Shown here piece after piece: positions 1-47,049 of a stretch of DNA of 64,000 nucleotides. The notes under the pieces were generated by a model. The model was not told where the DNA came from and ran no database searches. It saw nothing but the letters and a program-made list of their open reading frames with translations. Both the position numbers and the translations under genes were made by a program. The stretch is from a virus (Duplodnaviria; Caudoviricetes), in the IMG/VR virus record IMGVR_UViG_3300006620_000007, one strand, 5' to 3'. Position 1 is the stretch's first letter, and each line of letters opens with the position of its first letter.

Positions 1-456
1 CACTCTATACCAACCCCAATTACGTTTCGTCTTTGGGTATTTGTAATTCTCTAAAATCCAACTACTTGAATTTATTTTGTCTGTGCCGCCTACTCCATAT
101 ACAAATTCTATTTTGTCACCATATATAGCATACTCAGGTACGTTACCATCAACCCTGTCACCACCGTTGGCAAACACATACTCTCCTACAGTAGTAGCCA
201 TTAGTTTGTAGATTGCCCCACATGCTGTACCATCACTGTCATCAAAACTTATTACGTTGTCAACACATTCAAGTTCACGTATGATAGCAAGGCGTTCTGC
301 AAATGGCATGAAAGGTTGACCCTTCTTTGCTGTCAACCACTCATCACTGTTTAGTCCAACAATCAATTTGTCACCAAGTTTCTTTGCCGCTTTAAAGTAC
401 GCCAAATGACCTGAGTGTAGTGGATCGAAGCCACCTGTAACCAACACATACTTCAT
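1..456 (-). CDS. Cytidylyltransferase-family nucleotidyltransferase fused to the start of a cupin domain (runs off window start)
   Basis: Not in the ORF track. Manual translation from ATG 456 gives MKYVLVTGGFDPLHSGH (HxGH motif)...GLNSD...FANGGDR...GVGG...SSS, then KTKRNWGWYRV, typical of the start of ManC-type cupins. Confidence 0.8.
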   Translation of the reverse strand, partial: MKYVLVTGGFDPLHSGHLAYFKAAKKLGDKLIVGLNSDEWLTAKKGQPFMPFAERLAIIRELECVDNVISFDDSDGTACGAIYKLMATTVGEYVFANGGDRVDGNVPEYAIYGDKIEFVYGVGGTDKINSSSWILENYKYPKTKRNWGWYRV

Positions 457-518
457 AAATGTATTTAATTTAGTGCCAGATAACATTGTTTATTCCTGGT
501 TGCTCAATAAGTAATTAC

Positions 519-1112
519 ATGGACACATTGAATTTATTTGTTAATAGTATCAGTAGAGTTACGTTTTCAAAACACAAAGATATCAAAAAATTATTTGATA
601 GAGTTGTTGAAGACTACCAAAAGCAAACCAACAATGTTAATATACAGCATATTAATACTTGGCAGAGCAAGGATAACTTTCACACTAATAACGCTTTCAA
701 ACACATCAGCGAGAGTGATGATGTTAAGGGTTTTGTTAAGTCTATTACTGAAAAATTTGAAGTTAAACAAGGACAGCATATTGCTATTACAAGAGCATAC
801 ATTCAAACAGTATTGCCAGGTGGTTGCTTAACTAAAACAAAAAACACAAATAGTTTTTATTCAGGTATGTACTTTGTAACCAGCGATCCAAAAAGTGGCG
901 GACTTGTAATTGACAATCCTGTAAGTGAATATTACTTCAGTAAGATTCCAGTTGAAAATAAAAACGCATACAATAGTTGGCAAACGTATTTGCCAATGCC
1001 AGAAGGCGAGATGTATTTTATTCCAGGATATTTAGACGTTAGTACTACACCTAACTTGAGTAAAACTAATTTGGATATTATTACTTTTGATCTCGAAATA
1101 ATCAAAAAATGA
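519..1112 (+). CDS. 2OG-Fe(II) oxygenase-fold protein (TIGR02466-like), apparently lacking metal ligands
   Basis: SFYSGMYFV...SGGLVIDNP...PEGEMYFIPGYL...ITFD pattern; ATG 519 chosen because it lies 5 nt after a TAAGTA box. Confidence 0.6.
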   Translation: MDTLNLFVNSISRVTFSKHKDIKKLFDRVVEDYQKQTNNVNIQHINTWQSKDNFHTNNAFKHISESDDVKGFVKSITEKFEVKQGQHIAITRAYIQTVLPGGCLTKTKNTNSFYSGMYFVTSDPKSGGLVIDNPVSEYYFSKIPVENKNAYNSWQTYLPMPEGEMYFIPGYLDVSTTPNLSKTNLDIITFDLEIIKK

Positions 1113-1534
1113 CAAACGAAGAAGTTCTAACACTAATCGAGAACTCAAATCAAAATAAGTTTAGCAATGTACTGTTGTTACCCTTAGGTGATGATGTGTT
1201 AGACAACCATATAGAACAATGGTTATTGGAACGTGTAAACGTGGTTAAAATGCCCGTGTATACCCCTGAATCATTAGAGTATGCTGTTGCCCGTGTAGAC
1301 TATGCTTTGTGTACTGTAGGGCCCTTAAAATGCGTCTTAGACGCCAGTATACCTATGTTTATCAACATGCATGATACTGAGTTTGACATAGTAAATAAAG
1401 ATAACAGATTTGTATTTGATCCTTTTAGAAATGAAGACAAAACCAAAATTGATTATACAACTGTATTAGATTTAGCAACCAAATGTTTAAAGAAAGACTT
1501 GGATAAACACTGGATACCATATTATGAAATGTAG
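1109..1534 (+). CDS. Hypothetical protein
   Basis: 141-aa ORF overlapping both neighbours, consistent with translational coupling. Confidence 0.6.
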   Translation: MTNEEVLTLIENSNQNKFSNVLLLPLGDDVLDNHIEQWLLERVNVVKMPVYTPESLEYAVARVDYALCTVGPLKCVLDASIPMFINMHDTEFDIVNKDNRFVFDPFRNEDKTKIDYTTVLDLATKCLKKDLDKHWIPYYEM

Positions 1535-2462
1535 TGCATTTTGGAATCACACCAATATAAGAAGTGGCAACAGAGTCTACCCTTGTTGTAGATTCAAACG
1601 TTCTATTGCTACATTCGATGGAGACATTGACAACGTATTACACAGTACAGCCTATCAAGACCTACGTGAACAAAGTGCTAAAGGTGAATTCATTAAAGGC
1701 TGTGAAAAGTGTTTCTATGAAGAAAAGATAGGACACAAAAGCCTACGTGAGGAGTTCAACGAAAAATATTCAATGGACAAAGTTGAACTAAAGTTTCTTG
1801 AAATTGGTTTTGATAACTTGTGTAATTTAACTTGTGATGGTTGTAATTCAGAGTTTAGTACAAGTTGGATTGTAAAAGAAAAAGAAATTTACGGAGCACC
1901 TAAACACAAGTTAATGGAGATCGATGACGTTACAAACGTACCAGACACTCTTGACAAGATATTGTTTCTTGGAGGAGAGCCATTAATTACTAACAGGCAT
2001 TTGAAACTGTTACGTCAAATAAAAAACAAAAGCCATGTTGAAATTATATACAACACTAACGGAACGTTTATACCTAATGATGAAGTTGTTGAAGAACTAA
2101 GGCACTATAAGAAAGTAACTTTTATCTTAAGTATTGATGGCATAGGCGAACTTGGAGAACGTGTACGTGGCGGAACTAAATGGCCTGATGTTGTTAAATT
2201 TATTGATTGGGTTCACGACAATATGTATACATTAGAATTTAATTCTGTGCTACACAAAAACAACTACATGGGTCTAAAAGACTTACATGACTTCTGTACA
2301 AGATTTACAAACACACGTTGGTATATTAACGTACTGACATTCCCTTTTGATTTAGATATCAATGTACTTGATGCTGATGCTAAGAATAGTATTATTAGTG
2401 ATGCAGAAAGATTAAACTTACCTAACAAAGATTTTATTATTAATCATTTACAAAAGAATTAA
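1524..2462 (+). CDS. Radical SAM protein with N-terminal twitch/SPASM-type auxiliary Cys motif
   Basis: CNLTCDGC (CxxxCxxC), LGGEP, YNTNG, SIDG; N-terminal C...YPCC...GCEKC. Confidence 0.9.
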   Translation: MKCSAFWNHTNIRSGNRVYPCCRFKRSIATFDGDIDNVLHSTAYQDLREQSAKGEFIKGCEKCFYEEKIGHKSLREEFNEKYSMDKVELKFLEIGFDNLCNLTCDGCNSEFSTSWIVKEKEIYGAPKHKLMEIDDVTNVPDTLDKILFLGGEPLITNRHLKLLRQIKNKSHVEIIYNTNGTFIPNDEVVEELRHYKKVTFILSIDGIGELGERVRGGTKWPDVVKFIDWVHDNMYTLEFNSVLHKNNYMGLKDLHDFCTRFTNTRWYINVLTFPFDLDINVLDADAKNSIISDAERLNLPNKDFIINHLQKN

Positions 2463-3594
2463 TCTTATGTAGTAATTCAACAGGCTGTTTTTGTTGAAAC
2501 AAATTAAGATAATGTTCTCTATTATATTCTAATATAGTTGTAAGTTCGTTGTACATGTCTTGTAGTTCATGTATGTTATAACTGTTTAGTTTATCAACTT
2601 CACCCATTGCCATTGCAAGTCTTGTTGAAGGATCTTCTTCGTTGTCATATGATTCATCTATAATTTGGCTAAAGGTCATAAAGCCAAGTTCACGCAATAG
2701 TGCTAACGTTCCTTTCAATCCAACAACAATAAACGGGTGCTTATATAAGAAACACTTCAATGCTTTTTCTGTAAATGCTTGTCTATTATTATCCCAAAAG
2801 TCTCCTTCGGTAACAATGCTAAAATAACTTTCTTTGTAATAATCATCTGCACTTGGCAAACTTCTTGACATTGATTTATATGTAACTTCGTTCAAGTCTA
2901 ATTCTACAGGCAAGTTGTCTTGTAATAATGTTACAAATTCTTTTGGTAAATTAGTATCTAATAAACTTTTATCAAGATACTTTCTGTGTTCTTGTTGTGT
3001 GCTATCGCCGTTGAATACATGTTCATATGCACCAAGCGGACAACTTAGGTATGTATGTTTAGCAATGTCATTCTTCAACAAATGGTGTGTTACTTGTAGT
3101 CTGTGCATACGTTCTTGCCTATTCAAACACAAGAACTTTTTCTTACGTAAGTTAGTGTTACCATTCCAATCTTTGTTGAGATGATTGCGTATATCAATGC
3201 CGTCATATCTATCAAGATGTAATTGTACATTAAAATATATTTTGTTATTTGTGTTAAGAAGTTTGTTGTTTGTTAGTATAACCCAGTCAACAATAAAAGG
3301 ATTGTCCTGTACAGTTTTTTCTACCAACGCAAGAAATGCATCGTCTGTAAGCCCCTCGTATGAGTCATCGATAACAAGAAAGGTCGGTATTTTATACGTT
3401 TTAAAAAAGTTAGTAAATGTTTCAAATGTGTAATCATTGTCTCCTACATATTCAAAGAATACTACAAGTTTATCTTGGTTCTCAAGTACCTTATCATTAT
3501 GTCCTTCAAATTCAATAATACCTTTGAAGTTCTCGATAAACGTACCAAGGCTTCTGGAATTACTATCCATTGTTATTAAAGGTATTTTCTTCAT
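2440..3594 (-). CDS. Putative GT-B glycosyltransferase-like protein (GT10-like C-terminal motif)
   Basis: KKFLCLNR..R.HR; YFSIVTE...FTEKALK...HPFIVVG resembles the GT10 FxLxFEN...TEK motif. Confidence 0.45.
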   Translation of the reverse strand: MKKIPLITMDSNSRSLGTFIENFKGIIEFEGHNDKVLENQDKLVVFFEYVGDNDYTFETFTNFFKTYKIPTFLVIDDSYEGLTDDAFLALVEKTVQDNPFIVDWVILTNNKLLNTNNKIYFNVQLHLDRYDGIDIRNHLNKDWNGNTNLRKKKFLCLNRQERMHRLQVTHHLLKNDIAKHTYLSCPLGAYEHVFNGDSTQQEHRKYLDKSLLDTNLPKEFVTLLQDNLPVELDLNEVTYKSMSRSLPSADDYYKESYFSIVTEGDFWDNNRQAFTEKALKCFLYKHPFIVVGLKGTLALLRELGFMTFSQIIDESYDNEEDPSTRLAMAMGEVDKLNSYNIHELQDMYNELTTILEYNREHYLNLFQQKQPVELLHKINSFVND

Positions 3595-4454
3595 AGTAAT
3601 TTTACATTCTTAACCACTGCTTCTTCTTGTGGTTTTAGTTTTGGATTAGCAGGACACATTGCACAAATGCTGTGTGGTTTGAAAATATTTTTAACAAATT
3701 CTTCAAGTTCACTTTCTTGTACATCAATGTTAAGTCCTTTGTAATCTACATATGGTTTCCAATCAACATCATCTATTTGTCCTGCTTTGCTCAAGTATGT
3801 ACGCACCATACTAATAGGAGGACACTTGTATAACTGTCCTTTGTATATTATAGGATATATGTTTACACCACATGCTTTATAACTTGCTTCTGGATCTTTG
3901 TCAGTCCAAGGCTTTAGTTTGCCGTTGATTGTTTGTCTATAATCATACCAGCCACCTTCTGTAGGATCAGTAACTTCTACTTCAACATCATCTTGCTTAT
4001 GTGCAATATCACTAACCATACTCCAGTTGCCTTTGCTGTAAAAAGCATTCCATAAATTAGTTTCTACCATTTCTCTAACCTTAGGATTTTTATTATGCAA
4101 ACTACAACTAATTTTTGCTCTGCCTATTTTCTTAAGAACTTTTAGTATTTCTGGACGCTTAGGTAATAAGAATCCGTTAGTATAAACTTCAATGACTGCA
4201 TGATCGAATATACGTCTTGCTTCTTTTAATATATCGTATATGCGTGGGTGTAACAACGGCTCACCACCAATTATAGTTACATGGTCTGGGTCAAGTCTTT
4301 TACCCCATGCTTCCATATTCTTAATGATGTCTTCAAATGATTCTACGAATGGCAAGTTGTGATCAATAAACCTATCGCAACCCGGACACGCCAGATCACA
4401 ACTTGTCGTAATCATGTATTCAAGATTTGGTATATGATAACCGCGTTTACTCAA
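3591..4454 (-). CDS. Radical SAM protein
   Basis: CDLACPGC, IGGEPLLHP, YTNG; C-terminal C...YKCP...CAMC auxiliary Cys. Confidence 0.9.
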   Translation of the reverse strand: MSKRGYHIPNLEYMITTSCDLACPGCDRFIDHNLPFVESFEDIIKNMEAWGKRLDPDHVTIIGGEPLLHPRIYDILKEARRIFDHAVIEVYTNGFLLPKRPEILKVLKKIGRAKISCSLHNKNPKVREMVETNLWNAFYSKGNWSMVSDIAHKQDDVEVEVTDPTEGGWYDYRQTINGKLKPWTDKDPEASYKACGVNIYPIIYKGQLYKCPPISMVRTYLSKAGQIDDVDWKPYVDYKGLNIDVQESELEEFVKNIFKPHSICAMCPANPKLKPQEEAVVKNVKLL

Positions 4455-5508
4455 AGTAACTTTCCAATGTGCCTTTACGTTTCGTATCTAAAGTAACACA
4501 ATGGAAGCCACCACTCAATGTACGTGCTTGACGCATCGGTAATGCTATACTTTCAATTCCCCATTTATCTAATTCTTTACGCAGGTCTTCTTGATTCTCA
4601 TCACAAATTACAAGTTTCTCATTAACACTCATAAAGTTCAAACCAATATACTTACTGCATGGCGAAACGTTGTTAGGCAAGTTAGTGCCGATATCATGTA
4701 CCTTATCACCTGGGAAGAAAATCTTATCCCAGTTTTTAAAGATAGGTGGATACCAGTCAGGTGTAATTCTATCTCCGTTAAACAATACAAGTCCAGGACG
4801 TAATGGAATTACTGTGCTGTCAAAGTGTGAATAACTATAGAATTTTTCAGCAAGATGAATTTTGTATCCTAAAGGTTCAAGGATAGTTTTTAACCACTGT
4901 CCTCCTAATAGTGTACCACTGTTGCTTACTTGATAGATTAAATCCTTACCAAGTCTTACTACGTTAGGTGCATCAAATACAATTTCTTTATTAACAAGTG
5001 TAGGAATACTTAGGTCTTCAAGTTGATAACTTTCATCAAGTAGTCTTGGGCGAGGCGCACTAATCCATTGCGATCCACCTGCCATTGCTTCATATAAAAA
5101 TTCTCTATATGCTGTTGTTTCGTATTGTCTTGCTCTCATTGCACCTGGACAATCAATAATAAGATTGTTAAGTGGCAATAATAAATCTCTTGGACAGTAT
5201 GTATACCAACCTGTAGTTTTCCAATCTGGAGAACCAAATTCTACGCTGTGATCAATTGACTCTGGGCGTCTAACTTTAACTCCAAGGTTAGTTAAAAGTT
5301 TGGCAAGGCCATCAAGGTCCTCATTTGCTTCGTCAATTACCCACTCAGGACTTGGTCCTTCTAAGTCTTTGATGTGTTCATATTTGCAATCTGCAAATCC
5401 AAAACTGTGCGTTGATTTATCTACTGTTGGTATTCTTGCATGATCGGCGATACCCACAAAACATTCTTCTAATGGATCCCAATCATTGTGACTGCTTACT
5501 ACTGTCAT
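4447..5508 (-). CDS. Amidinotransferase (glycine / inosamine-phosphate amidinotransferase family)
   Basis: SHNDWDPLEE start, CPRD, FDA, SHFDST, and catalytic GGFHCVT. Confidence 0.92.
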   Translation of the reverse strand: MTVVSSHNDWDPLEECFVGIADHARIPTVDKSTHSFGFADCKYEHIKDLEGPSPEWVIDEANEDLDGLAKLLTNLGVKVRRPESIDHSVEFGSPDWKTTGWYTYCPRDLLLPLNNLIIDCPGAMRARQYETTAYREFLYEAMAGGSQWISAPRPRLLDESYQLEDLSIPTLVNKEIVFDAPNVVRLGKDLIYQVSNSGTLLGGQWLKTILEPLGYKIHLAEKFYSYSHFDSTVIPLRPGLVLFNGDRITPDWYPPIFKNWDKIFFPGDKVHDIGTNLPNNVSPCSKYIGLNFMSVNEKLVICDENQEDLRKELDKWGIESIALPMRQARTLSGGFHCVTLDTKRKGTLESYFE

Positions 5509-5555
5509 ATTAATCTCCTTGGTTAGTTAGTCATATTTAAATGGCTATTGTGAGA

Positions 5556-6431
5556 TTATGTGCCAGAACTGGTATTGACTATTTCGCCTATTAGTTCGCT
5601 AATACACACTCTATTGACGTCACTGCCTCGGTTCCAATCCTTCCATTTGTCGTCTCCGATGCCAAACATAATGCAGTCTGTGGGTAGTAAGTTCTTATCT
5701 TCTATTGCTTGATTGTAAGCAGTTGCATACTGTTGCCAGTTCCAATCTACAGAAAAGTTTTGTATTAAACTATTTGCAATGCTTATATCAATTCTGTTAT
5801 TCATTTCTACAGAATTAAACACATCAATGCCGTCATCTGTATCTACACGTTCACAACGTACACCTACACGTAAAAATTCAGCACCATAAAATGCTTTGCT
5901 AATACTAAATGTAATAGTTTCTACACACTTCCATTGTGCTAAATTTACATTAATATTCTTTGTACAAGGATAATATGCAAAGTCAAGTAGCACAGGAATC
6001 TCCAAAGCATTACAGTTATGCAAGTAATACTCAAGGTCAACATGCTGTCTACCATAGTCACTAAAGGGAACACTTGTGATAAAAACATCGTCCCATTCAA
6101 GTGGTGCGTCTTCAAGGTATTCCCAATCACAACCATGTTTCAGACATGCACTATGATACATAAATTCACCTTTGTGAAATCTAAAACGTTTGTTCTTGTG
6201 TCTAAAATAAAAATGATCAAAGGCTTGTACAGTACCACAAACTAATTTTTGGCTTGGAAATAAATCAAGTCCTGTTAGTTTATTGTTACCGCTATCGCTT
6301 ATCCATTTCATAAATGTTTTGATAAACGTAGATGGTAATTCTTCGTTGTACAAATCATTTACAGGATTTAATTCTGTAATAAACTTTTTAATTTTGTTGT
6401 CTGTTACAGGTTTAGCGCCTCTTAAATTCAT
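5556..6431 (-). CDS. PLP-dependent fold-type I enzyme (aminotransferase/lyase-like)
   Basis: LLDFAY (PLP Asp) and TFSISKAF (Schiff-base Lys) followed by LRVG. Confidence 0.65.
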   Translation of the reverse strand: MNLRGAKPVTDNKIKKFITELNPVNDLYNEELPSTFIKTFMKWISDSGNNKLTGLDLFPSQKLVCGTVQAFDHFYFRHKNKRFRFHKGEFMYHSACLKHGCDWEYLEDAPLEWDDVFITSVPFSDYGRQHVDLEYYLHNCNALEIPVLLDFAYYPCTKNINVNLAQWKCVETITFSISKAFYGAEFLRVGVRCERVDTDDGIDVFNSVEMNNRIDISIANSLIQNFSVDWNWQQYATAYNQAIEDKNLLPTDCIMFGIGDDKWKDWNRGSDVNRVCISELIGEIVNTSSGT

Positions 6432-6930
6432 TCTTTACTCCAGTTACTTGCATAGTATACTTAGGCCTCATTCCGCTATTAGCACTTAAATGCGGCTCAT
6501 CTTTTTGAATAATAATTGCATCACCACGTTTCCATTTTGTGATAGGTGTATTGTTTATTTCAAAATAATGTCCACTCTGCCAGTCTTCTAAAAAAATATT
6601 AATACGGCAACATTCGTCAGGATCAACTCCGTAGTTCTTTGATATCATATAAAACGTATCAACGTGCTCTGGTAATACTTGTCCTGGTGCTTGTTGCATT
6701 ACTGCTACAGTACATCTGTCAAATAACGACTTACCAAAGTTAATAAAATGTTCATTATCTGGAAATGCTTGTTTATATTGTGTGTTGTCTTTTGTATAAC
6801 CTGCAAGATGATATTTTTTATTTTGTGATTCAAATGCAGTTGCTCTGCCTTGATCACTTACGTTATCTTTATCATCATAAAGAAGTTGTTTGTAATTAAG
6901 TTCTGGTATATCTAATTTTATTTGGTCCAT
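6412..6930 (-). CDS. Cupin / 2OG-Fe(II) oxygenase (Asp/Asn beta-hydroxylase-like)
   Basis: PGQVLPEHVD (HxD), distal PHLSAN, KYTMQVTG. Confidence 0.7.
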   Translation of the reverse strand: MDQIKLDIPELNYKQLLYDDKDNVSDQGRATAFESQNKKYHLAGYTKDNTQYKQAFPDNEHFINFGKSLFDRCTVAVMQQAPGQVLPEHVDTFYMISKNYGVDPDECCRINIFLEDWQSGHYFEINNTPITKWKRGDAIIIQKDEPHLSANSGMRPKYTMQVTGVKNEFKRR

Positions 6931-7664
6931 GGTTTGTCGTATGCTACTTTCTCTTTATCATCAAACCAATACAAACTTCTGTGTGGAGGATGTTTAGAGT
7001 CGTGTTCTGCGTTACTAACATAATAGAACAAACGCAATGCTTTTCTACTTGTACCTTCCGGGTTTGTCATTGGTTCAGGGTAACCGTGAAATGCAAAGTT
7101 ATCATAACTCCATATAACGGCATTACCTGCACCTACAGGAACTTTGCTGTGTATAGTTTCTCTTTTTCTATCGTAAAACTGTAACTGTCCACCCCAATCT
7201 TGATCCCAATCTTCATTAAGATAGATTACTAAACTTACCATTCGGTGTAATCTAAGTTGTTCATTCCAATTGAAATCGCTGTGTACTTTTAAACTATCAC
7301 CTGTTAATGACTTACAATATCCTGCACCTATAAGATGAGGATCAGGTATTAGATCAACTGTGTCAGTAACCTCTTGTAACCATTTAATAAACTTTCCACT
7401 GTGTAGTGCATGTATAACTGCATCTTGTACAGGTGTCTTATCAACATTATTATATTCATACATACATGAACCTGCTCTTGTAAAATGCTTACAGTCTTCA
7501 AGTGGAACTTCTTCCAACTCTTTGGCCATTGCTTTTACAAGTTCATTAGGAACAAGATTGTCTATAGTTAATAAACTATAACTTGGGTGACTACGATACT
7601 TTTGTTGTAGTTCGTATGTGTTTGGAAAATTCTTTTCAATGTGATCTAAAAGTTGTTGCTTCAT
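6918..7664 (-). CDS. 2OG-Fe(II) oxygenase (prolyl-4-hydroxylase-like)
   Basis: LKVHSDFN (HxD), YLN..W....GGQL, FHG, RKALRLFYY. Confidence 0.88.
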   Translation of the reverse strand: MKQQLLDHIEKNFPNTYELQQKYRSHPSYSLLTIDNLVPNELVKAMAKELEEVPLEDCKHFTRAGSCMYEYNNVDKTPVQDAVIHALHSGKFIKWLQEVTDTVDLIPDPHLIGAGYCKSLTGDSLKVHSDFNWNEQLRLHRMVSLVIYLNEDWDQDWGGQLQFYDRKRETIHSKVPVGAGNAVIWSYDNFAFHGYPEPMTNPEGTSRKALRLFYYVSNAEHDSKHPPHRSLYWFDDKEKVAYDKPWTK

Positions 7665-8362
7665 TTTTTTATTAATTCAAAACCTTTTCTATCTATATCT
7701 AATTCTTTAATGTAGATATCAACGTACTTGTCAATGATAGACTTGATTTCGGATTCAGTTGCAATGTCTTTCTTGATCATAAAACCTGTCCACGAAGTTG
7801 CAGTCTTTAGCAAATACTCGTCATGTGTTTCGTACAACTTGGGTTCAAGTTTGTCATAACCATATTCTTCAGGTTTTTCTGCATCATGAAATATCATAAC
7901 ATCAGTTACACCTGTTAAACAATCAACTGTTGATTTCCTACAAGAAGCAAAGCCGTCTGTAAAAATTAAACTTGACTTATACGGCATTATTTTAATTTCA
8001 TTTGCAAGTGATGTGTAGTAATTGTCAATAGCAGTTTTCTGTGATTCGTTAAGTTGGCTTGGCAAAATTTTAATGCTTTCAATACCAAGTGGAGCAATAT
8101 CGTGATGCCTCCATTCACTCTTACTTGTAATAGCACCTAAGTTTTCTTCTTTGACTAAGTCTAACCATCCTTGTTCGCTTTCAACATGAATAATCTTTTG
8201 TGCAGGAAATCTAACAAATAAAGGTGTTGAATAACGTCCTACTCCTAATTCAAGTATTAGTTCGGGGTTAATTAATTCAACCATTGCTCTAACTACTGGT
8301 TGATGTGTGCTCCATCTATAATGGAAGTTTTTTCCGAATTTCTTTGCACTTTTAATTCTCAT
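7661..8362 (-). CDS. Class I SAM-methyltransferase-like protein
   Basis: ILELGVGRYST motif I, IFTDG, IFHD. Confidence 0.6.
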   Translation of the reverse strand: MRIKSAKKFGKNFHYRWSTHQPVVRAMVELINPELILELGVGRYSTPLFVRFPAQKIIHVESEQGWLDLVKEENLGAITSKSEWRHHDIAPLGIESIKILPSQLNESQKTAIDNYYTSLANEIKIMPYKSSLIFTDGFASCRKSTVDCLTGVTDVMIFHDAEKPEEYGYDKLEPKLYETHDEYLLKTATSWTGFMIKKDIATESEIKSIIDKYVDIYIKELDIDRKGFELIKK

Positions 8363-9344
8363 TGTTTCTCTCTACAGTATATACTTCTTTTACATTTTCA
8401 AAACTTTTGATTGAAGGTGTAATCAAAGGCTTTGATTTATTATTCTTCTTTACTTCTTTACGTGTTTGCCCAATTAACTCCATACTTGGCGTTACAAAAA
8501 ACACTACATCAACATCTGGATAATATTCCAAACCTCTGTAATCAAAAAGCACAAACTTGTCAATATTATTTAAGTCCGCTACGTCAATTCTTGTGTTTTC
8601 TTGGCCCTTAATAGGATCAAGTAGCAAGTCGTCTACAAGAGTAAACTTATGTTCTAACTGTTGTAAATGCTTTCTAATATAAGTTTTTCCTGAAAATGAT
8701 TTTCCTACTACTGCAATTTTATCATATTTGCTATTAACAATAGCCTGTATAGCATCGTCAATCTTCATCTTTTCCCTTGTACATCTAAAGAAAGGTCTAC
8801 TTACAGGTGTGTTACCCATATATTTGATTTCTGTGAAGTCTGTATATTCAACAAGATTTTGCATATACTTGTTGTATGTTTGTTTACCATGCCCTTCAAA
8901 ATACATAACTTTGTTAGTTTTGCGACATGCTTTGCTTAAAATTCCGTATCTATTTTCAAGTTCAATAGTATCAATAACTGCAAGAAACATAACAACATCA
9001 AAGTTGTCTATGCTTGTCCAAAGAAAATTACTGTCTAAATCATCTACAACAAACTGTACATTTTCAATATCCAATTGATCTTTAATTTCATTTGCATTGT
9101 TTACTGCATTAGCATCATATTCAATACCCACAACATTTTTTGCACCCCAAGTTGATGCTTGAAAACTCATCTGTCCCATGTTGCACCCTAAGTCAACTAC
9201 AGTAGCATCTTTGAAATCGTTTGGATCATAGTAAGCAATTCTACTGTTAAGATCACGTTTACCTTTAATACCCAATTGTGGTATTTCATGATAGTCATCA
9301 AACCAATTATCTCTTTTTACTAAATTTTTATTTTTTTTGCTCAC
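8352..9344 (-). CDS. SAM-dependent methyltransferase fused to a P-loop domain
   Basis: VVDLGCNMG, GIEYD, FDVVMFLAV; C-terminal AVVGKSFSGKT Walker A. Confidence 0.75.
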   Translation of the reverse strand: MSKKNKNLVKRDNWFDDYHEIPQLGIKGKRDLNSRIAYYDPNDFKDATVVDLGCNMGQMSFQASTWGAKNVVGIEYDANAVNNANEIKDQLDIENVQFVVDDLDSNFLWTSIDNFDVVMFLAVIDTIELENRYGILSKACRKTNKVMYFEGHGKQTYNKYMQNLVEYTDFTEIKYMGNTPVSRPFFRCTREKMKIDDAIQAIVNSKYDKIAVVGKSFSGKTYIRKHLQQLEHKFTLVDDLLLDPIKGQENTRIDVADLNNIDKFVLFDYRGLEYYPDVDVVFFVTPSMELIGQTRKEVKKNNKSKPLITPSIKSFENVKEVYTVERNNEN

Positions 9345-10041
9345 TCTTTGCTCCTAAATTCCTTGTTAAACTTTCTGAGTTTATGTTTATACCAATAGAG
9401 TAGAATGGATGTAAACGTGCCACTGGTACATTTGTTGATGTTAGTTCTAATAACTTAGATCCAATTTGTTGGTCGGCCGCTACAACATATCCGTGTTCAG
9501 AAACAAAGTCTAACAATCTTTGTGCGCCTTGAGGTTTGATAATGTAACTCCATGCACCTCTAAAATAATTACCTACGTAGTTTAGAGTACGTTTACCTTT
9601 TGCATGTATGTTATGATATGGTCCTACTACAACATCTTCTTTCATGCTTTGTTCAACTGCATGATTGTACGAACCACTATAAGGGTCAAACGGATCTAAC
9701 TTACATACATGCTTAAATTTTGTAAGTATGTCTTTGGGCAAAGGTCTAATAAAATATCCGTCATGTTCAAGAATAAGATATGGAATATTTTCTTCAACAC
9801 ATTCTTTCCATAGTCCGTAATGACTTAGAAAGCAACCAAGTACACCTAAGCGACCTTTTTTAACTTTGCTTATGGATTGAATACCATACTTTGCACAAGC
9901 AATATTGAAGTCATTGCCATTAACTGCATTGAAGTATTGTATAGCAACTCCATTTCTATAACCTTGTGCAACACACTCAGATGCCATTTGCACACTGTGA
10001 GCGTTGTCTTTTAGACATATAATCTTTGCTTTATAATCCAT
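9328..10041 (-). CDS. Glycosyltransferase family 25
   Basis: FNAVNG, GCFLSHYGLW, LILEHD, GAWSYIIKP.GA..LL. Confidence 0.85.
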   Translation of the reverse strand: MDYKAKIICLKDNAHSVQMASECVAQGYRNGVAIQYFNAVNGNDFNIACAKYGIQSISKVKKGRLGVLGCFLSHYGLWKECVEENIPYLILEHDGYFIRPLPKDILTKFKHVCKLDPFDPYSGSYNHAVEQSMKEDVVVGPYHNIHAKGKRTLNYVGNYFRGAWSYIIKPQGAQRLLDFVSEHGYVVAADQQIGSKLLELTSTNVPVARLHPFYSIGININSESLTRNLGAKSEQKK

Positions 10042-10813
10042 TTGCTACCTGATACTTAAATGTTTCTTCCCATGCAGTGCCGTTTTCATATTCTTCTCGA
10101 CTAAACTGACTGTGTGCAATATGTTCCAGCATAGGTGTTCTATCAAAACCAAACTGTCCTTGCCAATGTTCAACTGCACTTTGTCCTAACACTTCAATTG
10201 GCTTACCTAAACACAATGCTTCAACAACTGCCATACTATGATATGTAATAACCTTTTTAGCATTATTCATCATAGGTATTATTTCAGCAAATCTGTGTCT
10301 ACGTTTACCGGTTTTCTCCCTTACTACTAATGGCACATCTAAACTTTCATAATGTGCAATAGTTTGTTTACGCCATTCGTCATAATCTTGTCCCAAGTAT
10401 TTAAAGATATTTGTGTTCCTTGGCATCACTAATAGGTTGTACTCACCCTTGTCATTCCAATCTTTATAACGATCATCTAATTCAAGTGTGTGTATTCTAC
10501 TATTTTTAATAGGCCCTGGTTTGGTATTTTGTAAGGAATTGTAACTAATTCGATAATACATAGGGCGTTTGTAATTCCAATTGCCTATGTAACCGTTGTC
10601 TAAATGAAAAAAATTTATGTTTTTGTTTTCTTGTAATGCATCAAATACCCAATCACAAAATGGGTGACTAAATGCTAAAATTCTATCTTCTTGGATTTGT
10701 TCTTTGGACTCAATAATTATTGTGTCAAAGTTATCAATAAGGTAAGGAAATAATTGTCCTCGTAGTTCGTATGATCTTTTAGGTATTTGGAAAGTTGGTT
10801 TAAATTGTGGCAT
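10031..10813 (-). CDS. Putative GT-B / capsule polysaccharide biosynthesis-like protein
   Basis: LDNGY, VVREK, VITYHSMAVVEALCLGKP motif; ATG 10813 overlaps the uvsY stop. Confidence 0.5.
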   Translation of the reverse strand: MPQFKPTFQIPKRSYELRGQLFPYLIDNFDTIIIESKEQIQEDRILAFSHPFCDWVFDALQENKNINFFHLDNGYIGNWNYKRPMYYRISYNSLQNTKPGPIKNSRIHTLELDDRYKDWNDKGEYNLLVMPRNTNIFKYLGQDYDEWRKQTIAHYESLDVPLVVREKTGKRRHRFAEIIPMMNNAKKVITYHSMAVVEALCLGKPIEVLGQSAVEHWQGQFGFDRTPMLEHIAHSQFSREEYENGTAWEETFKYQVANGL

Positions 10814-11264
10814 CTTCCATACCAGCCACACGTAACTTAACAATATTAGTAATTTGCCATTGCTTCTGATCTAAGCCTTTGGTAATGCCTAACCATTTAT
10901 TACGCATTAGTGCAAATTCATTAATGATCTTTTCCATATCAACTACGTCTGCTTCACCGTCAACATACTTCTCAACATCACGACTTGACAATGCTCGTTG
11001 ATAATTTTCAAGATACTTCTTAAAAAACGTACTACGTAATCTACGTAATTCGATGTTAAGATATTCTAATATTGCTTCAAGTTCTTGCAACTGATTGAAA
11101 CGTTGTTCGACAAGGCCGGGCATTTCTGCCGCGGCCTTCTCAAGACTTCCGAATATACGGATCTCTTTTTTAGCCTGTAATAACTGATCGTTATAATAAT
11201 CTAACGCCTCAGGTATTTTACTAATATCTTTTGATATTTGGCTATACCACATAGTTAATCCCAA
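10800..11264 (-). CDS. uvsY: UvsY recombination mediator
   Basis: Helical protein with KYLENYQRALSSRDVEKYVDGE and KQWQITNIVKLRVAG, near uvsX. Confidence 0.8.
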   Translation of the reverse strand: MGLTMWYSQISKDISKIPEALDYYNDQLLQAKKEIRIFGSLEKAAAEMPGLVEQRFNQLQELEAILEYLNIELRRLRSTFFKKYLENYQRALSSRDVEKYVDGEADVVDMEKIINEFALMRNKWLGITKGLDQKQWQITNIVKLRVAGMEDATI

Positions 11265-30779: not shown

Positions 30780-31220
30780 ATGAGCGACAAAATCAATTGC
30801 AGTGGTGCATTATTTTATGCACTAAAAACTAAACGTTTTTTATTCTTACATAGAACTCAAAGCAAACAGAATAATGTTTGGGGTTTGGTAGGTGGCCGTG
30901 GTGCTGTTGACGAATCGCCTATTGATGCTTTACATAGAGAAATCAAAGAAGAAATTGGTGCTACACCAAAATCAGTAAAAACTATACCTTTAGAAACTTT
31001 TGTCAGTACTGACGAGAAGTTTAATTTTCATACATATCTAATAGTTGTTAAAGAAGAATTTATTCCTGATTTAAATGAAGAACATGATGGGTATTCTTGG
31101 GCAAGTTTTAGTAAGTATCCAAAACCCTTGCATCAGGGATTAAGAAACACACTACAAAACAAAACTAATATTACAAAGTTGCAGACAGTGTTTGAGTTGA
31201 TTGACATATTAGAGAGTTAA
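30780..31220 (+). CDS. NUDIX hydrolase
   Basis: WGLVGG....DESPIDALHREIKEEIG Nudix box; LNEEH.GY.W. Confidence 0.88.
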   Translation: MSDKINCSGALFYALKTKRFLFLHRTQSKQNNVWGLVGGRGAVDESPIDALHREIKEEIGATPKSVKTIPLETFVSTDEKFNFHTYLIVVKEEFIPDLNEEHDGYSWASFSKYPKPLHQGLRNTLQNKTNITKLQTVFELIDILES

Positions 31221-31221
31221 C

Positions 31222-32472
31222 ATGGTAAAAGTTTACGGCGACATAATGCTGGACAGTTGGATTATTGGGAAAGCCAGTAGAATTAGTCCTGAAGCACCTG
31301 TACCAGTACTAAAAGAAATTGAAAGAAAAAACAGCATAGGTGGTGCGGCTAATCTTGCACTTAATCTTAGCAATATTATTGACAATGTTTCTTTGTTTGG
31401 TGCAGTAGGCATGGACGATGAAGGGTTTGATGTTTTAAAAATACTTGAAGCAACAAATAATATAGATTGTAGCATACAATCAGATGCAGAAATTACAACT
31501 ACTAAAACAAGATTAGTAGGCCAACGTGGACAACACATCATGCGTTGGGATAAAGAGAAAAAATACAAAGGCAAAGCACAAGCAAGATTCCTTGAAAGTG
31601 TTAACGAAGAAGATATTGTATGTTTAAGTGATTATAACAAAGGTACTATTGGTGCACATTTAGTAGAAAAACTTAATAATAAAAAATGCAAGGTTTTAGT
31701 TGATCCTAAACAAGGACCAGAAGTATACAAAGGTGCATTTCTTGTAAAACCAAACATGAAAGAATACAAAGCATGGTTTGGAAAGTTTAATAGAGAAGTT
31801 GCTTTCTTTGCAATCAAAGAACATGGTTGGAAATATCTTGTAGTAACAGACGGTGCTAATGGTATACACGTTTTAAGTGATGAATTACAATATCAACACT
31901 ACAAAGAACCTGTAAGAGAAGTTGCAGATGTAACCGGTGCTGGTGATACTGTACTTGCCGTTATTGCTTATGGTATTAAAAGAGGTATGGATGTGTTTGC
32001 CGCATGTAAGTTAGCCTGTTATGCTGGTGCAAGATCAGTAGAACACAGAGGTGTATATGCAATACAAACAGAAGATTTAAAAAGACAAGTAGTTTGGACC
32101 AATGGCGTGTTTGATATACTACATGAAGGACATTTTAGACTGTTACGACACGCAAGATCAAAAGGTAGAAAACTTATTGTAGGTATAAACAGTGATGCAA
32201 GTACAAAAAGACTTAAAGGAGAAGGAAGACCTATTAATAATCAGTTACAACGTAAAATGAATCTTGAACTTTTACCATGGATTGACGAAGTTGTAATATT
32301 TGATGAAGATACTCCCATTAATTGTATTGAAAGATTTCAACCTGACTTAATTATTAAGGGTGGCGATTACACTGTTGACACGGTTGTAGGTAATGAACTT
32401 GCAGAAGTAGAAATTTTTCCAACAGTAAAAGACCAATCAACAACAAATATTATAGAGAAGATGAAAATATGA
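31222..32472 (+). CDS. hldE: Bifunctional D-glycero-beta-D-manno-heptose-7-P kinase / heptose-1-P adenylyltransferase
   Basis: GDIMLD, RISPEAPVPV, GGAAN, LSDYNKG, VDPK, DVTGAGDT (PfkB); NGVFDILHEGH, GINSDAS, KGGDY, STT. Confidence 0.95.
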   Translation: MVKVYGDIMLDSWIIGKASRISPEAPVPVLKEIERKNSIGGAANLALNLSNIIDNVSLFGAVGMDDEGFDVLKILEATNNIDCSIQSDAEITTTKTRLVGQRGQHIMRWDKEKKYKGKAQARFLESVNEEDIVCLSDYNKGTIGAHLVEKLNNKKCKVLVDPKQGPEVYKGAFLVKPNMKEYKAWFGKFNREVAFFAIKEHGWKYLVVTDGANGIHVLSDELQYQHYKEPVREVADVTGAGDTVLAVIAYGIKRGMDVFAACKLACYAGARSVEHRGVYAIQTEDLKRQVVWTNGVFDILHEGHFRLLRHARSKGRKLIVGINSDASTKRLKGEGRPINNQLQRKMNLELLPWIDEVVIFDEDTPINCIERFQPDLIIKGGDYTVDTVVGNELAEVEIFPTVKDQSTTNIIEKMKI

Positions 32473-33293
32473 GAATTTTAGTTACAGGTTATCAAGGATT
32501 TATTGGTTCAAATGTAGCATCATACCTAAAAGCAAAAGGACATGATGTAGAAGGCTTTCCTTGGGAGTTAAACAAGTATCCAGATGCTCAACAATATGAT
32601 AGAATTATACATTTAGGTGCAATTTCAAGTACAACTGAGCGTGATGTTGAAAAGATTATGCAACACAACTATGAATACACAATGAAGTTAATTGAAATTT
32701 GTGATATGATGGGTACTTCTTTACAATATGCAAGTTCGGCAAGTGTATATGGAGAACTAACACACTTTAGAGAAGACTTAGAATTAGATCCTCGCAGTCC
32801 TTATGCTTGGACAAAGTATCTTGTTGATAGATTTGTAACACAACACCTAAATGATTTTAGAGTTACCATACAAGGCTTTAGATATTTCAATGTTTATGGT
32901 CATGGAGAAGAACATAAAGGCGATATGATGAGCCCTGTTAGTAAATTTACTAAACAAGCCAAAGAAACTGGTGTTATAAAAGTGTTTGAAAACAGTGGTA
33001 AGTTCAAACGTGATTTTATTTGTGTTGAAGACGTAGCAGTAATGCATGAAAAAATGCTTGATGTTGATAAAAGTGGTATTTGGAACATTGGTAGTGGTGT
33101 TGCTACTTCATTTTTACAAGTTGCCCAGGTAATTGCAAACAAGTATGGAGCAAAAATTGAAGAAATACCAATGCCAGAAAACATTAAGGCACAATATCAA
33201 AAATATACGTGTGCTGACAATGACAAATTAAAAGAAACTATTGAACATAAGTGCTTTAGTGTAGGAGAATGGGTAAATGGCCAACCAAACTGA
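32469..33293 (+). CDS. hldD: ADP-L-glycero-D-manno-heptose-6-epimerase
   Basis: VTGYQGFIG, HLGAISSTTE, YASSASVYG, YAWTK, RYFNVYG.GE.HKG.M.S, RDFICVED, YQKYTCAD. Confidence 0.9.
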   Translation: MRILVTGYQGFIGSNVASYLKAKGHDVEGFPWELNKYPDAQQYDRIIHLGAISSTTERDVEKIMQHNYEYTMKLIEICDMMGTSLQYASSASVYGELTHFREDLELDPRSPYAWTKYLVDRFVTQHLNDFRVTIQGFRYFNVYGHGEEHKGDMMSPVSKFTKQAKETGVIKVFENSGKFKRDFICVEDVAVMHEKMLDVDKSGIWNIGSGVATSFLQVAQVIANKYGAKIEEIPMPENIKAQYQKYTCADNDKLKETIEHKCFSVGEWVNGQPN

Positions 33294-33978
33294 TTGTAAA
33301 GTTGAATGGTGGAGCGTTGTTCCTGGACTTACTAAAGTCGAACCAATCAAAGATGCAACAAAATTCATGCCTGAATGGTTCAAACATGCACCTAAGTACT
33401 TAACTGAAGACTTTGCAGACAAAGGTACTATTAAAAACTGTCCAGGTTTCATAGATTTATATAAAAATGCCTATGTTGTACCTATGTGGTGTGACTTTCA
33501 CATCAAAACAGACAGCAAAGAATTTGCATGGCACTCAAGTAACGAAAACTTTACTATGAGTTTGCATACTGACAAGCAATTTTTAGATCATGCACCGCAA
33601 AATGCCAAAGATGACTTTGTATGTGTTGCAAAAACCGATTGTCCTTGGCGTGTGCGTACAAGTCCTGGTTGGGCAATGATGCAATTACCAATGTTTTATG
33701 ATTTTAATGAATATTTTACGTGTATGCCTGGTATAACACACACGGAATGGAGTCATCAGATTAACCAACAACTGTTAATTAGAAAAGAAGGTGAATTTTT
33801 GCTTGAAAAAGGCACTCCATTAGCAATGTACGTACCAATAAAGATTGCAAACCTTGAAACTACGGTACAAGATGAAGATGAAGAGAAATATCGTGCAAGT
33901 TTTGTAAGTAATCTAATATTTCAAAGTAAGTTTAAAGGTGCTTACAAGAAATTCAAAGAAGCATGGAGTAAAAAATGA
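33277..33978 (+). CDS. Conserved phage hypothetical protein (DUF6065-like)
   Basis: PEWFK, TIKNCPGFID...YVVPMWCD, PW.VRT.PG, KGTPLA. Confidence 0.5.
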   Translation: MANQTDCKVEWWSVVPGLTKVEPIKDATKFMPEWFKHAPKYLTEDFADKGTIKNCPGFIDLYKNAYVVPMWCDFHIKTDSKEFAWHSSNENFTMSLHTDKQFLDHAPQNAKDDFVCVAKTDCPWRVRTSPGWAMMQLPMFYDFNEYFTCMPGITHTEWSHQINQQLLIRKEGEFLLEKGTPLAMYVPIKIANLETTVQDEDEEKYRASFVSNLIFQSKFKGAYKKFKEAWSKK

Positions 33979-34379
33979 GTAGACTTGAAGGTAAAGTAGA
34001 AAAAGGTTGGGGCTACGAACTAATATGGGCAACAACTGACAAGTATTGTGGCAAACTTATGGTATTTGAAAAAGCAGGCAAGAAATTTTCCATGCATTTT
34101 CATAAAGAGAAGGATGAATCATGGTTCGTTAATTCAGGACGCTTCGAAGTTAAATGGATTGACACAAAAGACGCTGTGTTATACAGCAAAGAATTAAATC
34201 CTGGGGATACATGGCACAATCCACCACTACAACCACACCAGTTAATTGCTCTTGAAGACAATAGTAGTATTAGTGAAGTTAGTACTGCTGATTCAGTGGA
34301 AGATAATTACAGAATTATACCTGGTGATAGTCAAAAAGAAATAATTAAGAAAAATTCTCCGCCACCCACACTGCCTTAG
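33975..34379 (+). CDS. Cupin (sugar-phosphate isomerase-like)
   Basis: VEKGWGYE, SMHFHKEKDESW, PHQL, EVST.D..EDNYR. Confidence 0.8.
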   Translation: MSRLEGKVEKGWGYELIWATTDKYCGKLMVFEKAGKKFSMHFHKEKDESWFVNSGRFEVKWIDTKDAVLYSKELNPGDTWHNPPLQPHQLIALEDNSSISEVSTADSVEDNYRIIPGDSQKEIIKKNSPPPTLP

Positions 34380-44314: not shown

Positions 44315-44315
44315 A

Positions 44316-46185: not shown

Positions 46186-46215
46186 TATATTTTATAGTTC
46201 CTTTTATGCAATTAC

Positions 46216-47049
46216 TTATTGTGTAGTTGGTTTTGTTTCGTCATTCGTGACATAGTCCCAAAAGAAATGTTGTTGTCCTGTGCGTGGCACTTGTACTACC
46301 CATTCACCGTCAACTAATACTCCACTTGGACTACTTGTTGGTAAGTCTTCTCTTTCACCAAACTTATCACAGCAACTATCGACAGTAATAATAGGAATAC
46401 CATATTGTGAACTCATCATACGTAGGTGTACGTCATGCCATTCCATCCATAAACTGTCTTGACTGTTTCCTCTATCTCCATTTGTAGCATGTAATATAAC
46501 TTCTACTTGATGTATACTTGCCATTAATGGTAGACTTGGTGCGTTAAATCTAAATCCATTACCCCAAAAATCATTACATATCATTCCGCATGTTCTTACA
46601 CCGTCAAGATAATGTGTTTTAGTTGTTCCTGGTGGATCTGCTAATACTTGGTCCCAACTATGATGTGGACTATCTTCTCCACCAACGATATATTGTTTGT
46701 TAGTTGCTCCAAGTAATTCGCCTTGTTTATCGTAATATCTAATTTGATTTTTTCTAATACTTCCTCTATGCTCGACATCAACCCATAATGTACCAAGTGC
46801 AATACCCATTCCTTTTGAGTTTGCATGTGTAATTACTTTGTATGCAGATTTGGCTAAATCAGGCATACCATTTTCTAATACTAAATCAAAGTTTGGAAAA
46901 TAACCTGATAGCGAACCTTCAGGTGTTAGTAACCAGTCGCAGTTATTTTCTGCGGCCCAGTCAATTGCCTTAATGATACTTGCTTCATTCTTTTCAAGAT
47001 TCTGTGTTACAGGTATTTGAGCACCCGCAAATCTAACTGTATTACTCAT
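46216..47049 (-). CDS. Carbon-nitrogen hydrolase (nitrilase superfamily)
   Basis: Glu-Lys-Cys triad: LTPEGSLSGY, TNKQ, GMICND; SPSGV. Confidence 0.85.
   Translation of the reverse strand: MSNTVRFAGAQIPVTQNLEKNEASIIKAIDWAAENNCDWLLTPEGSLSGYFPNFDLVLENGMPDLAKSAYKVITHANSKGMGIALGTLWVDVEHRGSIRKNQIRYYDKQGELLGATNKQYIVGGEDSPHHSWDQVLADPPGTTKTHYLDGVRTCGMICNDFWGNGFRFNAPSLPLMASIHQVEVILHATNGDRGNSQDSLWMEWHDVHLRMMSSQYGIPIITVDSCCDKFGEREDLPTSSPSGVLVDGEWVVQVPRTGQQHFFWDYVTNDETKPTTQ

Follow-up and report, generated by a model that had tools for sequence, protein, structure and literature searches.

A StrB1-type amidinotransferase and its conserved enzyme partners in a marine jumbo phage: a possible guanidino-sugar module

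Results

A cluster of thirteen overlapping genes

The window analyzed here is the entire 64,000-nucleotide (nt) viral stretch from IMG/VR record IMGVR_UViG_3300006620_000007, and the module under study lies at positions 519-10813. This segment is filled by 13 contiguous open reading frames (ORFs), three on the + strand (519-1112, 1109-1534, and 1524-2462) and ten on the - strand (2440-3594, 3591-4454, 4447-5508, 5556-6431, 6412-6930, 6918-7664, 7661-8362, 8352-9344, 9328-10041, and 10031-10813). Nearly all of these ORFs overlap by a few bases, and the sole gap is at 5509-5555. Seven of the products form the core of the module: an amidinotransferase, a 172-residue cupin, a prolyl-4-hydroxylase (P4H)-type oxygenase, a pyridoxal phosphate (PLP) enzyme, two radical S-adenosylmethionine (SAM) enzymes, and a GT-B transferase. 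The ORF layout, together with domain and fold searches, confirms an initial annotation of the window that listed 13 contiguous, mostly overlapping genes of named enzyme classes. The module genes are real: dozens of viral contigs conserve them, and their nonsynonymous divergence (dN) is far below synonymous divergence (dS).

The source is a marine jumbo myophage. The - strand genes upstream of the module encode a tail sheath, a tail tube, a large terminase, and a virion protein, as well as a gp32-like single-stranded DNA-binding protein, a UvsX-like recombinase, and a UvsY-like mediator. Its counterparts in Atu_ph07, Phosso, CBB, and Vibrio phage 2.275.O share 60-67% identity with the UvsX-like protein, and this similarity and the neighboring phage genes establish that the cluster is phage-borne, as had been proposed. 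CheckV estimates on related IMG/VR records (91 kb = 26% complete; 217 kb = 59% complete) imply a genome of ~350 kb. A megablast search of a phage collection with 11.5 kb returned no match.

A predicted StrB1-type amidinotransferase

The gene at 4447..5508 (- strand) encodes a predicted StrB1-type L-arginine amidinotransferase. Its alignment with StrB1 (PDB 1bwd) scored 303.7 bits (E = 1.7e-89) and was collinear end to end over residues 2-351, compared with 180-200 bits (E = 1e-52 to 1e-58) for HsvA, SxtG, and AGAT. Alignment to AGAT, SxtG, and HsvA requires insertions of 5-13 residues in the target near query positions 163-172, and the StrB1 alignment requires none there. Ten diverse viral homologues all share residues D108, H228, D230, H336, and C337. 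The catalytic C337 sits in a GGFHC motif, and C337, H228, and D108 align with residues of both StrB1 and AGAT. An intact catalytic cysteine had been noted from the sequence, and the bit scores and the missing insertion favor the StrB1 over the AGAT type. These alignments place the protein in the StrB1/AGAT family as a predicted pentein-fold amidinotransferase with StrB1-type architecture.

The amidinotransferase gene is the most constrained in the module. Its dN of 0.04-0.09 compares with 0.14-0.52 for the neighboring genes, and its dS is 0.7-1.1. In relatives in which the products of the neighboring module genes are only 42-81% identical to the window's, the amidinotransferase is 90-95% identical (91-95% in L018-L031). 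Since dS is near 1 and dN is low, this identity reflects strong purifying selection and not recent transfer.

A maximum-likelihood tree was calculated for viral homologues, homologues on contigs of metagenome-assembled genomes (MAGs), sampled proteobacterial homologues, two actinobacterial fusion proteins, and the enzymes of cyanophage S-SCSM2R and Campylobacter phage CP220. Thirteen viral sequences group with three from MAG contigs in a single clade (support 97/93), apart from the sampled proteobacterial homologues and the two actinobacterial fusions. The S-SCSM2R and CP220 enzymes are long branches outside this clade. Natural fusions were also recovered (P0121, P0122, and P0123), in which the amidinotransferase is joined to an APH-type phosphotransferase in Streptomyces, to an aminoacyl-tRNA-ligase-like domain in a Trebonia MAG, and to GT2 domains in a metagenome.

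A PLP enzyme recognized through its predicted structure

The 291-residue product of 5556..6431 (- strand) belongs to no Pfam family. Sequence-only PDB searches with this protein and with the 384-residue product of 2440-3594 gave nothing usable, so structure prediction was needed for both. The AlphaFold2 (AF2) model of the 291-residue protein has a predicted local distance difference test (pLDDT) score of 87.7. Foldseek matched the model to HisC and CobD (E = 5e-12), and VIA-align superimposed it on enzymes of the class I/II aminotransferase fold (Z = 22.1, root-mean-square deviation (rmsd) 3.3, 276 residues aligned). Invariant residues include the S176-x-S178-K179 motif, D150, Y153, R188, and R274. 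The modeled fold, the predicted Schiff-base lysine K179, and D150, the Asp expected to touch the pyridine nitrogen, together identify a predicted fold-type I PLP-dependent enzyme, and it was through structure prediction alone that the PLP enzyme of the initial annotation was verified.

This enzyme family is widespread in metagenomes, with 745 homologues, none of them named; tblastn found no match in cultured phages, and no fused forms were found. A short DegT/StrS-family PLP protein occupies its place in the distant locus L065 and in cyanophage S-SCSM2R. Alignment of profiles by hhalign detected no homology between the 291-residue family and the S-SCSM2R DegT-like protein labeled 'AHBA synthase', and none between the 172-residue cupin family and that protein. 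By sequence, the DegT/StrS protein of the distant variants looks like a non-orthologous replacement of the PLP step. Because the DegT/StrS protein substitutes in these variants, the PLP step can be said to travel with the amidinotransferase.

Oxygenases, radical SAM enzymes, and a GT-B protein complete the core

Linkage to the amidinotransferase is tightest for 6412..6930 (- strand), which encodes a predicted Fe(II)/2-oxoglutarate (2OG)-type cupin oxygenase of 172 residues. Its invariant PGxxxPxHxD...H signature supplies the triad H89, D91, and H147, and an Atlas lead points to PF05118, the Asp/Asn-hydroxylase family. It adjoins the amidinotransferase in L001, L052, L062, L069, and others, and it does so in nearly all diverged loci that keep the linkage. 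The overlapping gene at 6918..7664 (- strand) encodes a P4H-type 2OG-Fe(II) oxygenase (PF13640, E = 1.6e-14) with invariant H128, D130, H193, and R207 and weak PDB sequence matches to prolyl hydroxylases. A third oxygenase-like gene lies at 519..1112 (+ strand), with a likely ATG start at 519. It matches phrog_81 (E = 5.7e-12) and falls under the cut-off for both PF13759 and TIGR02466, and no conserved HxD...H was present among 16 homologues. The predicted count of two intact oxygenases and one with a degenerate triad is therefore correct.

The first radical SAM enzyme, at 1524..2462 (+ strand), carries an N-terminal twitch (auxiliary-cluster) domain. It matches PF04055 and PF13186 and scores 213 bits to the twitch radical SAM family NF033640, for which the cut-off is 170. 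Its invariant cysteines are C100/C104/C107 and, toward the N terminus, C3/C21/C22/C60/C63. The second, a 287-residue protein at 3591..4454 (- strand; PF04055, E = 9.6e-16), has invariant C19/C23/C26 and C-terminal C195/C211/C264/C267; these four C-terminal cysteines are candidate ligands of a second cluster. Both proteins thus have the CX3CX2C motif plus invariant extra cysteines, as had been read from the sequence. The best solved relatives are tetraether synthase and SkfB, with weak E-values. Among cultured phages, tblastn found the twitch enzyme in two Vibrio phages only, at 26% identity.

The last core member is a GT-B fold glycosyltransferase-like protein of 384 residues encoded at 2440..3594 (- strand). 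It has no Pfam match, and its AF2 model (pLDDT 85.7) was matched by Foldseek to GT4/SenB/BshA (E ~5e-4). In VIA-align, an alpha1,3-fucosyltransferase (2nzx) came first (Z = 13.2, rmsd 3.9, 274 aligned), level with further enzymes of the GT-B fold.

The core genes stay linked across diverged viral loci

A scan of IMG/VR with the amidinotransferase recovered 67 loci, and the 40 with at least 5 kb on each side were used for counts. The 172-residue cupin is present in 37/40, the PLP enzyme and the GT-B transferase in 36/40 each, and the P4H-like oxygenase in 34/40; of the radical SAM enzymes, the twitch enzyme is present in 34/40 and the second one in 33/40. These counts are not independent because many of the loci are closely related. 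The genes remain linked where amidinotransferase identity falls to 50-66% and where their order is rearranged (L054, L057, L062, and the MAG contigs L069-L071, whose amidinotransferases nest inside the viral clade). Random assortment of the genes among relatives had been named as the outcome that would overturn the cluster; the linkage of PLP enzyme, amidinotransferase, and radical SAM enzymes instead holds across diverged loci.

Amidinotransferase homologues occur in 16 of 401 Pseudomonadota genomes, at 31-41% identity among those examined, and none of the sampled homologues has module partners beside it. A bacterial origin of the whole module was therefore not found. Three contigs of a Verrucomicrobiales MAG, G004 (L069/L077, L079, and L080), carry members of the 291-residue PLP family, and one of them holds the whole module. 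The nesting of its amidinotransferase in the viral clade suggests binned phage contigs or prophage-like elements.

Other observations concern distant loci. In L062, part of a 217-kb viral record, two Asp/Asn-hydroxylase-family proteins lie beside the module, and an Mtd-like gene (L062:12682-13953, - strand; major-tropism-determinant N-terminal domain, receptor-binding type) is directly adjacent to it. In L065 the amidinotransferase is succeeded by a B12-radical SAM enzyme.

A swappable cassette and a larger sugar-handling island

The genes from 7661 to 10041 form a swappable cassette. Its first gene, 7661..8362 (- strand), encodes a possible class I methyltransferase-like protein of 233 residues with no Pfam match and a weak Atlas lead (Methyltransf_24 in 11% of one cluster). 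Next come a SAM-dependent methyltransferase at 8352..9344 (- strand; PF13847, E = 8.6e-13) and a GT25-family glycosyltransferase at 9328..10041 (- strand; PF01755, E = 4.7e-17). The C-terminal ~130 residues of the methyltransferase contain a Walker-A-like GKSFSGKT, which is P-loop-like and has no family match; this extension may be a fused small kinase or NTPase domain, and its motif is the cluster's sole hint of a kinase or phosphatase for phosphorylated intermediates. Each of the three cassette proteins occurs in 8/40 loci. In L002, L005, L007, L008, and L053, flanks 99-100% identical to the window enclose an alternative cassette (L002:5038-7837 in L002), which encodes two methyltransferase-type proteins (FkbM and Methyltransf_24), a TupA-like ATP-grasp enzyme, and a glycosyltransferase. 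Different cassettes between near-identical flanks point to recent exchange and to diversifying pressure on the product. Methylation and glycosylation had been included in the proposed logic of the cluster, but the variable segment 7661-10041 does not belong to the conserved core. Of the two methyltransferases originally listed, 8352-9344 stands and 7661-8362 depends on the Atlas lead; of the two or three glycosyltransferase-like proteins, the GT25 and 384-residue GT-B proteins stand and 10031-10813 is unproven.

This last gene, 10031..10813 (- strand), encodes a possibly glycosyltransferase-like protein of 260-270 residues with a weak Capsule_synth match (E = 0.11), and it overlaps the end of the UvsY-like gene (10800-11264). 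The remaining + strand gene, 1109..1534, encodes a 141-residue protein of unknown function that has no family match and is confined to closer relatives (22/40 loci). At the other edge of the window, 1..486 (- strand) encodes the N-terminal 162 residues of a sugar-phosphate nucleotidyltransferase (PF01467, E = 1.8e-16) that runs off the left end. The full gene in the near-identical locus L002 (L002:15023-15811) encodes 262 residues with a C-terminal PMI-type cupin, and it matches PF01467 and PF01050, RfaE domain II, and the C terminus of GMP_PMI. Past this fusion the island goes on with a GT8 transferase and a further four ORFs; among these is a paralogue of 10031-10813 with 25-30% identity that relatives carry left of the window. 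The module is part of a ~20-kb island of soluble sugar-handling enzymes that is cut by the window's left edge.

Hydropathy analysis of 16 proteins of the cluster found no transmembrane-like segment (maximum 19-residue Kyte-Doolittle hydropathy <=1.46), and Pfam and hydropathy searches of the cluster and its left extension found no membrane-embedded initiating transferase, flippase, polymerase, or ligase. The predicted solubility of all cluster proteins fits a cytoplasmic acceptor such as a virion protein or DNA. Beyond the module the window holds two more sets of sugar-handling genes detected by Pfam. One, at 30780-34379 after the neck genes, includes NUDIX, HldE-like, and HldD-like genes and a cupin. 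The other lies among fibre genes at 42500-47049 and includes a CN-hydrolase and a carbamoyltransferase; the carbamoyltransferase had been placed near 42.5 kb and is gene 42500-44314.

Promoter-like boxes

Two late boxes had been proposed, and both sequences are present. A TAAATA promoter-like box at 5534..5539 (- strand) lies 26 nt upstream of the amidinotransferase start, and a TAAGTA box at 508-513 (+ strand) precedes the + strand operon. TAAATA is found 3-40 nt upstream of gene starts in 15 of its 41 occurrences in the window, mostly before virion genes, but only 4 of 59 TAAGTA occurrences lie upstream of gene starts, which is no enrichment. TAAATA is accordingly a candidate for the late-promoter core of this phage lineage, as judged from its placement. 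The T4 late-promoter octamer TATAAATA was found 0 times in the window against ~6.9 expected, so the phage does not use a late box of the T4 type in that form. Scans for sigma-70-type promoters and terminators gave no enrichment.

Discussion

The favored reading

The data fit best with a virus-specific biosynthetic module that makes a guanidino-bearing sugar unit for a glycoconjugate on a cytoplasmic, phage-made acceptor. This reading is tentative, and we give it a probability of roughly two in five. A virion protein is the leading candidate for the acceptor. We infer the chemical steps, their order, the substrate, and the acceptor as follows. The precursor, a sugar phosphate or a nucleotide sugar, might come from the adjacent nucleotidyltransferase/PMI-cupin fusion and would be oxidized by a radical SAM enzyme and/or an Fe(II) oxygenase. 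The PLP enzyme would add an amino group to the oxidized precursor, and the amidinotransferase would turn this amine into a guanidino group with L-arginine as the donor. The GT-B protein, with the transferases and methyltransferases of the cassette, would build the unit into a glycoconjugate on the phage-made acceptor, and exchange of tailoring cassettes would diversify the product.

A link to sugar chemistry is supported by the fusions of the amidinotransferase to GT2 and to an APH-type kinase, by the DegT replacement in the distant variants, and by sugar-nucleotide genes both within the island and at other sites of the window. The glycan context of the island consists of the nucleotidyltransferase-PMI fusion, the GT8, GT25, and GT-B proteins, and the FkbM, TupA-like, and glycosyltransferase genes of the alternative cassette, to which the HldE/HldD-like genes and the carbamoyltransferase elsewhere in the window can be added. 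Also in favor are the TAAATA box ahead of the amidinotransferase, a motif that virion genes share, and the presence of a second amidinotransferase and a nearby 2OG oxygenase in purified virion preparations of cyanophage S-SCSM2R (PMC12801897).

Several observations weigh against this reading. The cluster and its left extension contain no cyclitol synthase domain, and neither PF01761 nor PF01658 occurs in the five related viral records searched (25-59% complete), in which positive controls worked. The PLP enzyme of the window has no DegT match; its fold is like that of amino-acid-type class I/II enzymes, and the structural neighbors tied at Z = 21-22 in VIA-align include the arginine-modifying MppP, RohP, and Plu4, as well as GntC. 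Neither radical SAM enzyme has BtrN- or DesII-specific similarity, so the parallel to a BtrN-like dehydrogenase that was drawn originally gains no specific support from sequence. The tight pairing of cupin and amidinotransferase is also compatible with a guanidino-amino-acid route. On the side of the acceptor, the large virion proteins contain no collagen-like repeats or other obvious hydroxylation targets, and the module comes after, and overlaps, the uvsY/uvsX/gp32 block and not the virion genes. Only relatives of 97-100% identity retain the TAAATA box in front of the amidinotransferase; in relatives that lack it, the PLP gene directly abuts the amidinotransferase gene. The earlier argument that late promoters favor a virion target is weak because the + strand motif is unenriched and the TAAATA box is poorly conserved. 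The aminoglycoside-like logic first proposed for the cluster is supported in its enzyme parts and their linkage, but not by a cyclitol synthase, a sugar (DegT) aminotransferase in the window, or BtrN similarity. It is plausible and unproven.

Alternative products and targets

In one alternative, the substrate is an amino acid. A diamino acid would be amidinated, hydroxylated by the Fe(II)/2OG enzyme, and cyclized, oxidized, or transaminated by the PLP enzyme, and the resulting guanidino amino acid would be attached to a glycan or protein. The class I/II fold is typical of enzymes acting on alpha-amino acids, the arginine enzymes RohP, MppP, and Plu4 and also GntC are among the top-tied structural neighbors, and the conserved C-terminal Arg is of the carboxylate- or phosphate-binding kind. 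The same route would suit the amidinotransferase-cupin pair, which is the tightest in the module, the Asp/Asn-hydroxylase-family proteins that flank the amidinotransferase in L062, the TupA-like ATP-grasp ligase of the alternative cassette, and the fusion to an aminoacyl-tRNA-ligase-like domain. However, the structural ties extend across the entire fold family and therefore carry no substrate information, the distant variants use a sugar-type DegT protein, and the amidinotransferase is nearest to the aminocyclitol enzyme StrB1. We regard the amino-acid route as a doubtful alternative.

It is improbable that the product is a free secondary metabolite, a soluble glycoside of the aminoglycoside-like or guanidino kind that would serve as an antibiotic, a signal, or a host-takeover molecule instead of decorating a macromolecule. 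A StrB1-type amidinotransferase, a PLP enzyme, radical SAM enzymes, a glycosyltransferase, and a methyltransferase are the usual parts of aminoglycoside clusters, L065 adds a B12-radical SAM enzyme after the amidinotransferase, and the equivalents in S-SCSM2R were labeled 'antibiotic synthesis genes' by their authors (PMC12801897). Domain and hydropathy scans of the cluster nevertheless revealed no cyclitol synthase, exporter, or resistance gene, and the many glycosyltransferases, swappable cassettes, and lipopolysaccharide (LPS)-type sugar genes resemble surface-glycan loci more.

The position and solubility of the enzymes raise the prospect of a product placed on phage DNA bases as protection against restriction. 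The module is co-oriented with and overlaps the uvsY/uvsX/gp32 block, all of its enzymes are soluble, and its GT-B fold is common to the T4 alpha- and beta-glucosyltransferases, although the structural match is generic (Z ~11-12 only). Thymidine hypermodification pathways also include PLP and radical SAM enzymes. Against this, the cluster and its vicinity contain no hydroxymethylase, no base kinase, and no DNA-binding domain, domain scans of the cluster surroundings showed no TET/JBP enzyme (a dedicated TET search was uninformative because its control failed), and the record that contains L062 encodes a high-scoring, ordinary thymidylate-synthase-family protein. DNA hypermodification is quite improbable.

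Remodeling of the host envelope, in which LPS or capsule is altered during infection, for example for superinfection exclusion, is very improbable. The LPS-type sugar genes (HldE/HldD-like in the window, KdsA/KdsB in S-SCSM2R) and a cassette diversity like that of O-antigen loci would suit it, but none of the membrane-embedded transferases, flippases, polymerases, or ligases that undecaprenyl-phosphate-linked O-antigen or capsule assembly needs was found, and 0/16 proteins have a transmembrane-like segment.

A creatine-type auxiliary metabolism, with guanidinoacetate or creatine-like compounds formed by the amidinotransferase and a methyltransferase, is rejected, even though both enzymes are present and an ocean virome survey reported virus-enriched 'creatine biosynthesis' genes (PMC11360552): the amidinotransferase has StrB1-type architecture and none of the AGAT insertions, methyltransferases are confined to the variable cassette (8/40 loci) and so are not conserved with the amidinotransferase, and the conserved partners are radical SAM enzymes, a PLP enzyme, an oxygenase, and a glycosyltransferase. 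A ribosomally synthesized and post-translationally modified peptide, suggested by weak YhhB/YhhC-type matches, was set aside because there is no space for a precursor gene and the surroundings are sugar enzymes.

Significance

Phage clusters that combine radical SAM enzymes and an amidinotransferase were first recorded in 2010 and have lacked an explanation. The window offers a compact, well-conserved, and environmentally abundant version with a clearly delimited core, which includes a new PLP family without a Pfam model and a very strongly constrained amidinotransferase. The guanidino-sugar reading can be extended to the proposal that abundant marine jumbo phages, with cyanophages and Campylobacter phages as convergent cases, make a guanidino sugar or a streptidine-like aminocyclitol, either as a cationic virion glycan or as a released aminoglycoside-like compound. 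This wider proposal is somewhat unlikely, and we know of no virus with either chemistry. If a guanidino glycan were carried on virions, it would be a new phage surface chemistry with a bearing on host range and on recognition by immune and defense systems. If the product were a free aminoglycoside-like molecule, the view of the marine origin of such compounds would change.

Comparison with known systems

The closest named enzyme is StrB1, the L-arginine:inosamine-phosphate amidinotransferase in the streptidine branch of streptomycin synthesis in Streptomyces griseus. The catalytic Cys, His, and Asp of the two proteins align, both lack the insertions of AGAT, SxtG, and HsvA, and either is encoded among PLP, glycosyltransferase, and tailoring enzymes. 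Unlike the StrB1 pathway, the cluster in the window has no cyclitol synthase, StsC-type aminotransferase, or obvious kinase or phosphatase, and unlike StrB1 the enzyme is phage-encoded and groups with viral sequences in the tree.

The capreomycidine and enduracididine pathways (VioC/VioD; MppP/MppQ/MppR; GntC) share the logic of an Fe(II)/2OG hydroxylase and a PLP enzyme of the class I/II fold acting on a guanidino substrate, and MppP, RohP, and GntC are among the tied structural neighbors. With arginine as their starting point, these pathways dispense with an amidinotransferase, a radical SAM enzyme, and a glycosyltransferase; the likeness is at the level of fold only.

Chloroviruses, mimiviruses, and some mycobacteriophages encode glycan synthesis and glycosylate their virions. 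The likeness to these systems consists of soluble nucleotide-sugar enzymes, glycosyltransferases, pairings of P4H-type and GT25-type proteins, and variable tailoring genes. Virion glycosylation is known for those viruses and would be a prediction for the present module, and we know of no amidinotransferase or paired auxiliary-cluster radical SAM enzymes in those viral glycan systems.

Two phage modules are more directly comparable, and the function of neither was established in the respective study (PMC2853527; PMC12801897). The main difference between the otherwise similar Campylobacter phages CP220 and CPt10 is an interchangeable module of 10-12 genes that includes five radical SAM genes and an amidinotransferase (PMC2853527, Timms et al. 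2010). It is likewise phage-borne and combines several radical SAM enzymes and an amidinotransferase with nucleotide-sugar transferases, but it belongs to another host and phage lineage, its amidinotransferase is only 29% identical and forms a very long branch, and no homologue of the 291-residue PLP enzyme or the 172-residue cupin was detected in CP220, hhalign comparisons with gp082 and gp085 included.

S-SCSM2R is a T4-like cyanomyovirus and not a jumbo phage. Its DegT-like, radical SAM, and amidinotransferase genes were labeled 'antibiotic synthesis genes' in 2025, a speculation based on annotation (PMC12801897). The PLP protein nearby is a short one of the DegT family and not homologous to the 291-residue enzyme. 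A second, divergent amidinotransferase followed by 2OG oxygenases lies beside KdsA/KdsB (ORF266-269, L076:10354-13337), and purified virion preparations contained both this second enzyme and one of the neighboring oxygenases (PMC12801897). The stretch that resembles the window is ORF305-310, where homologues of the second radical SAM enzyme (ORF306, 27% identity), the cupin (36%), and the amidinotransferase (39%) are adjacent to one another among glycosyltransferases and 2OG oxygenases.

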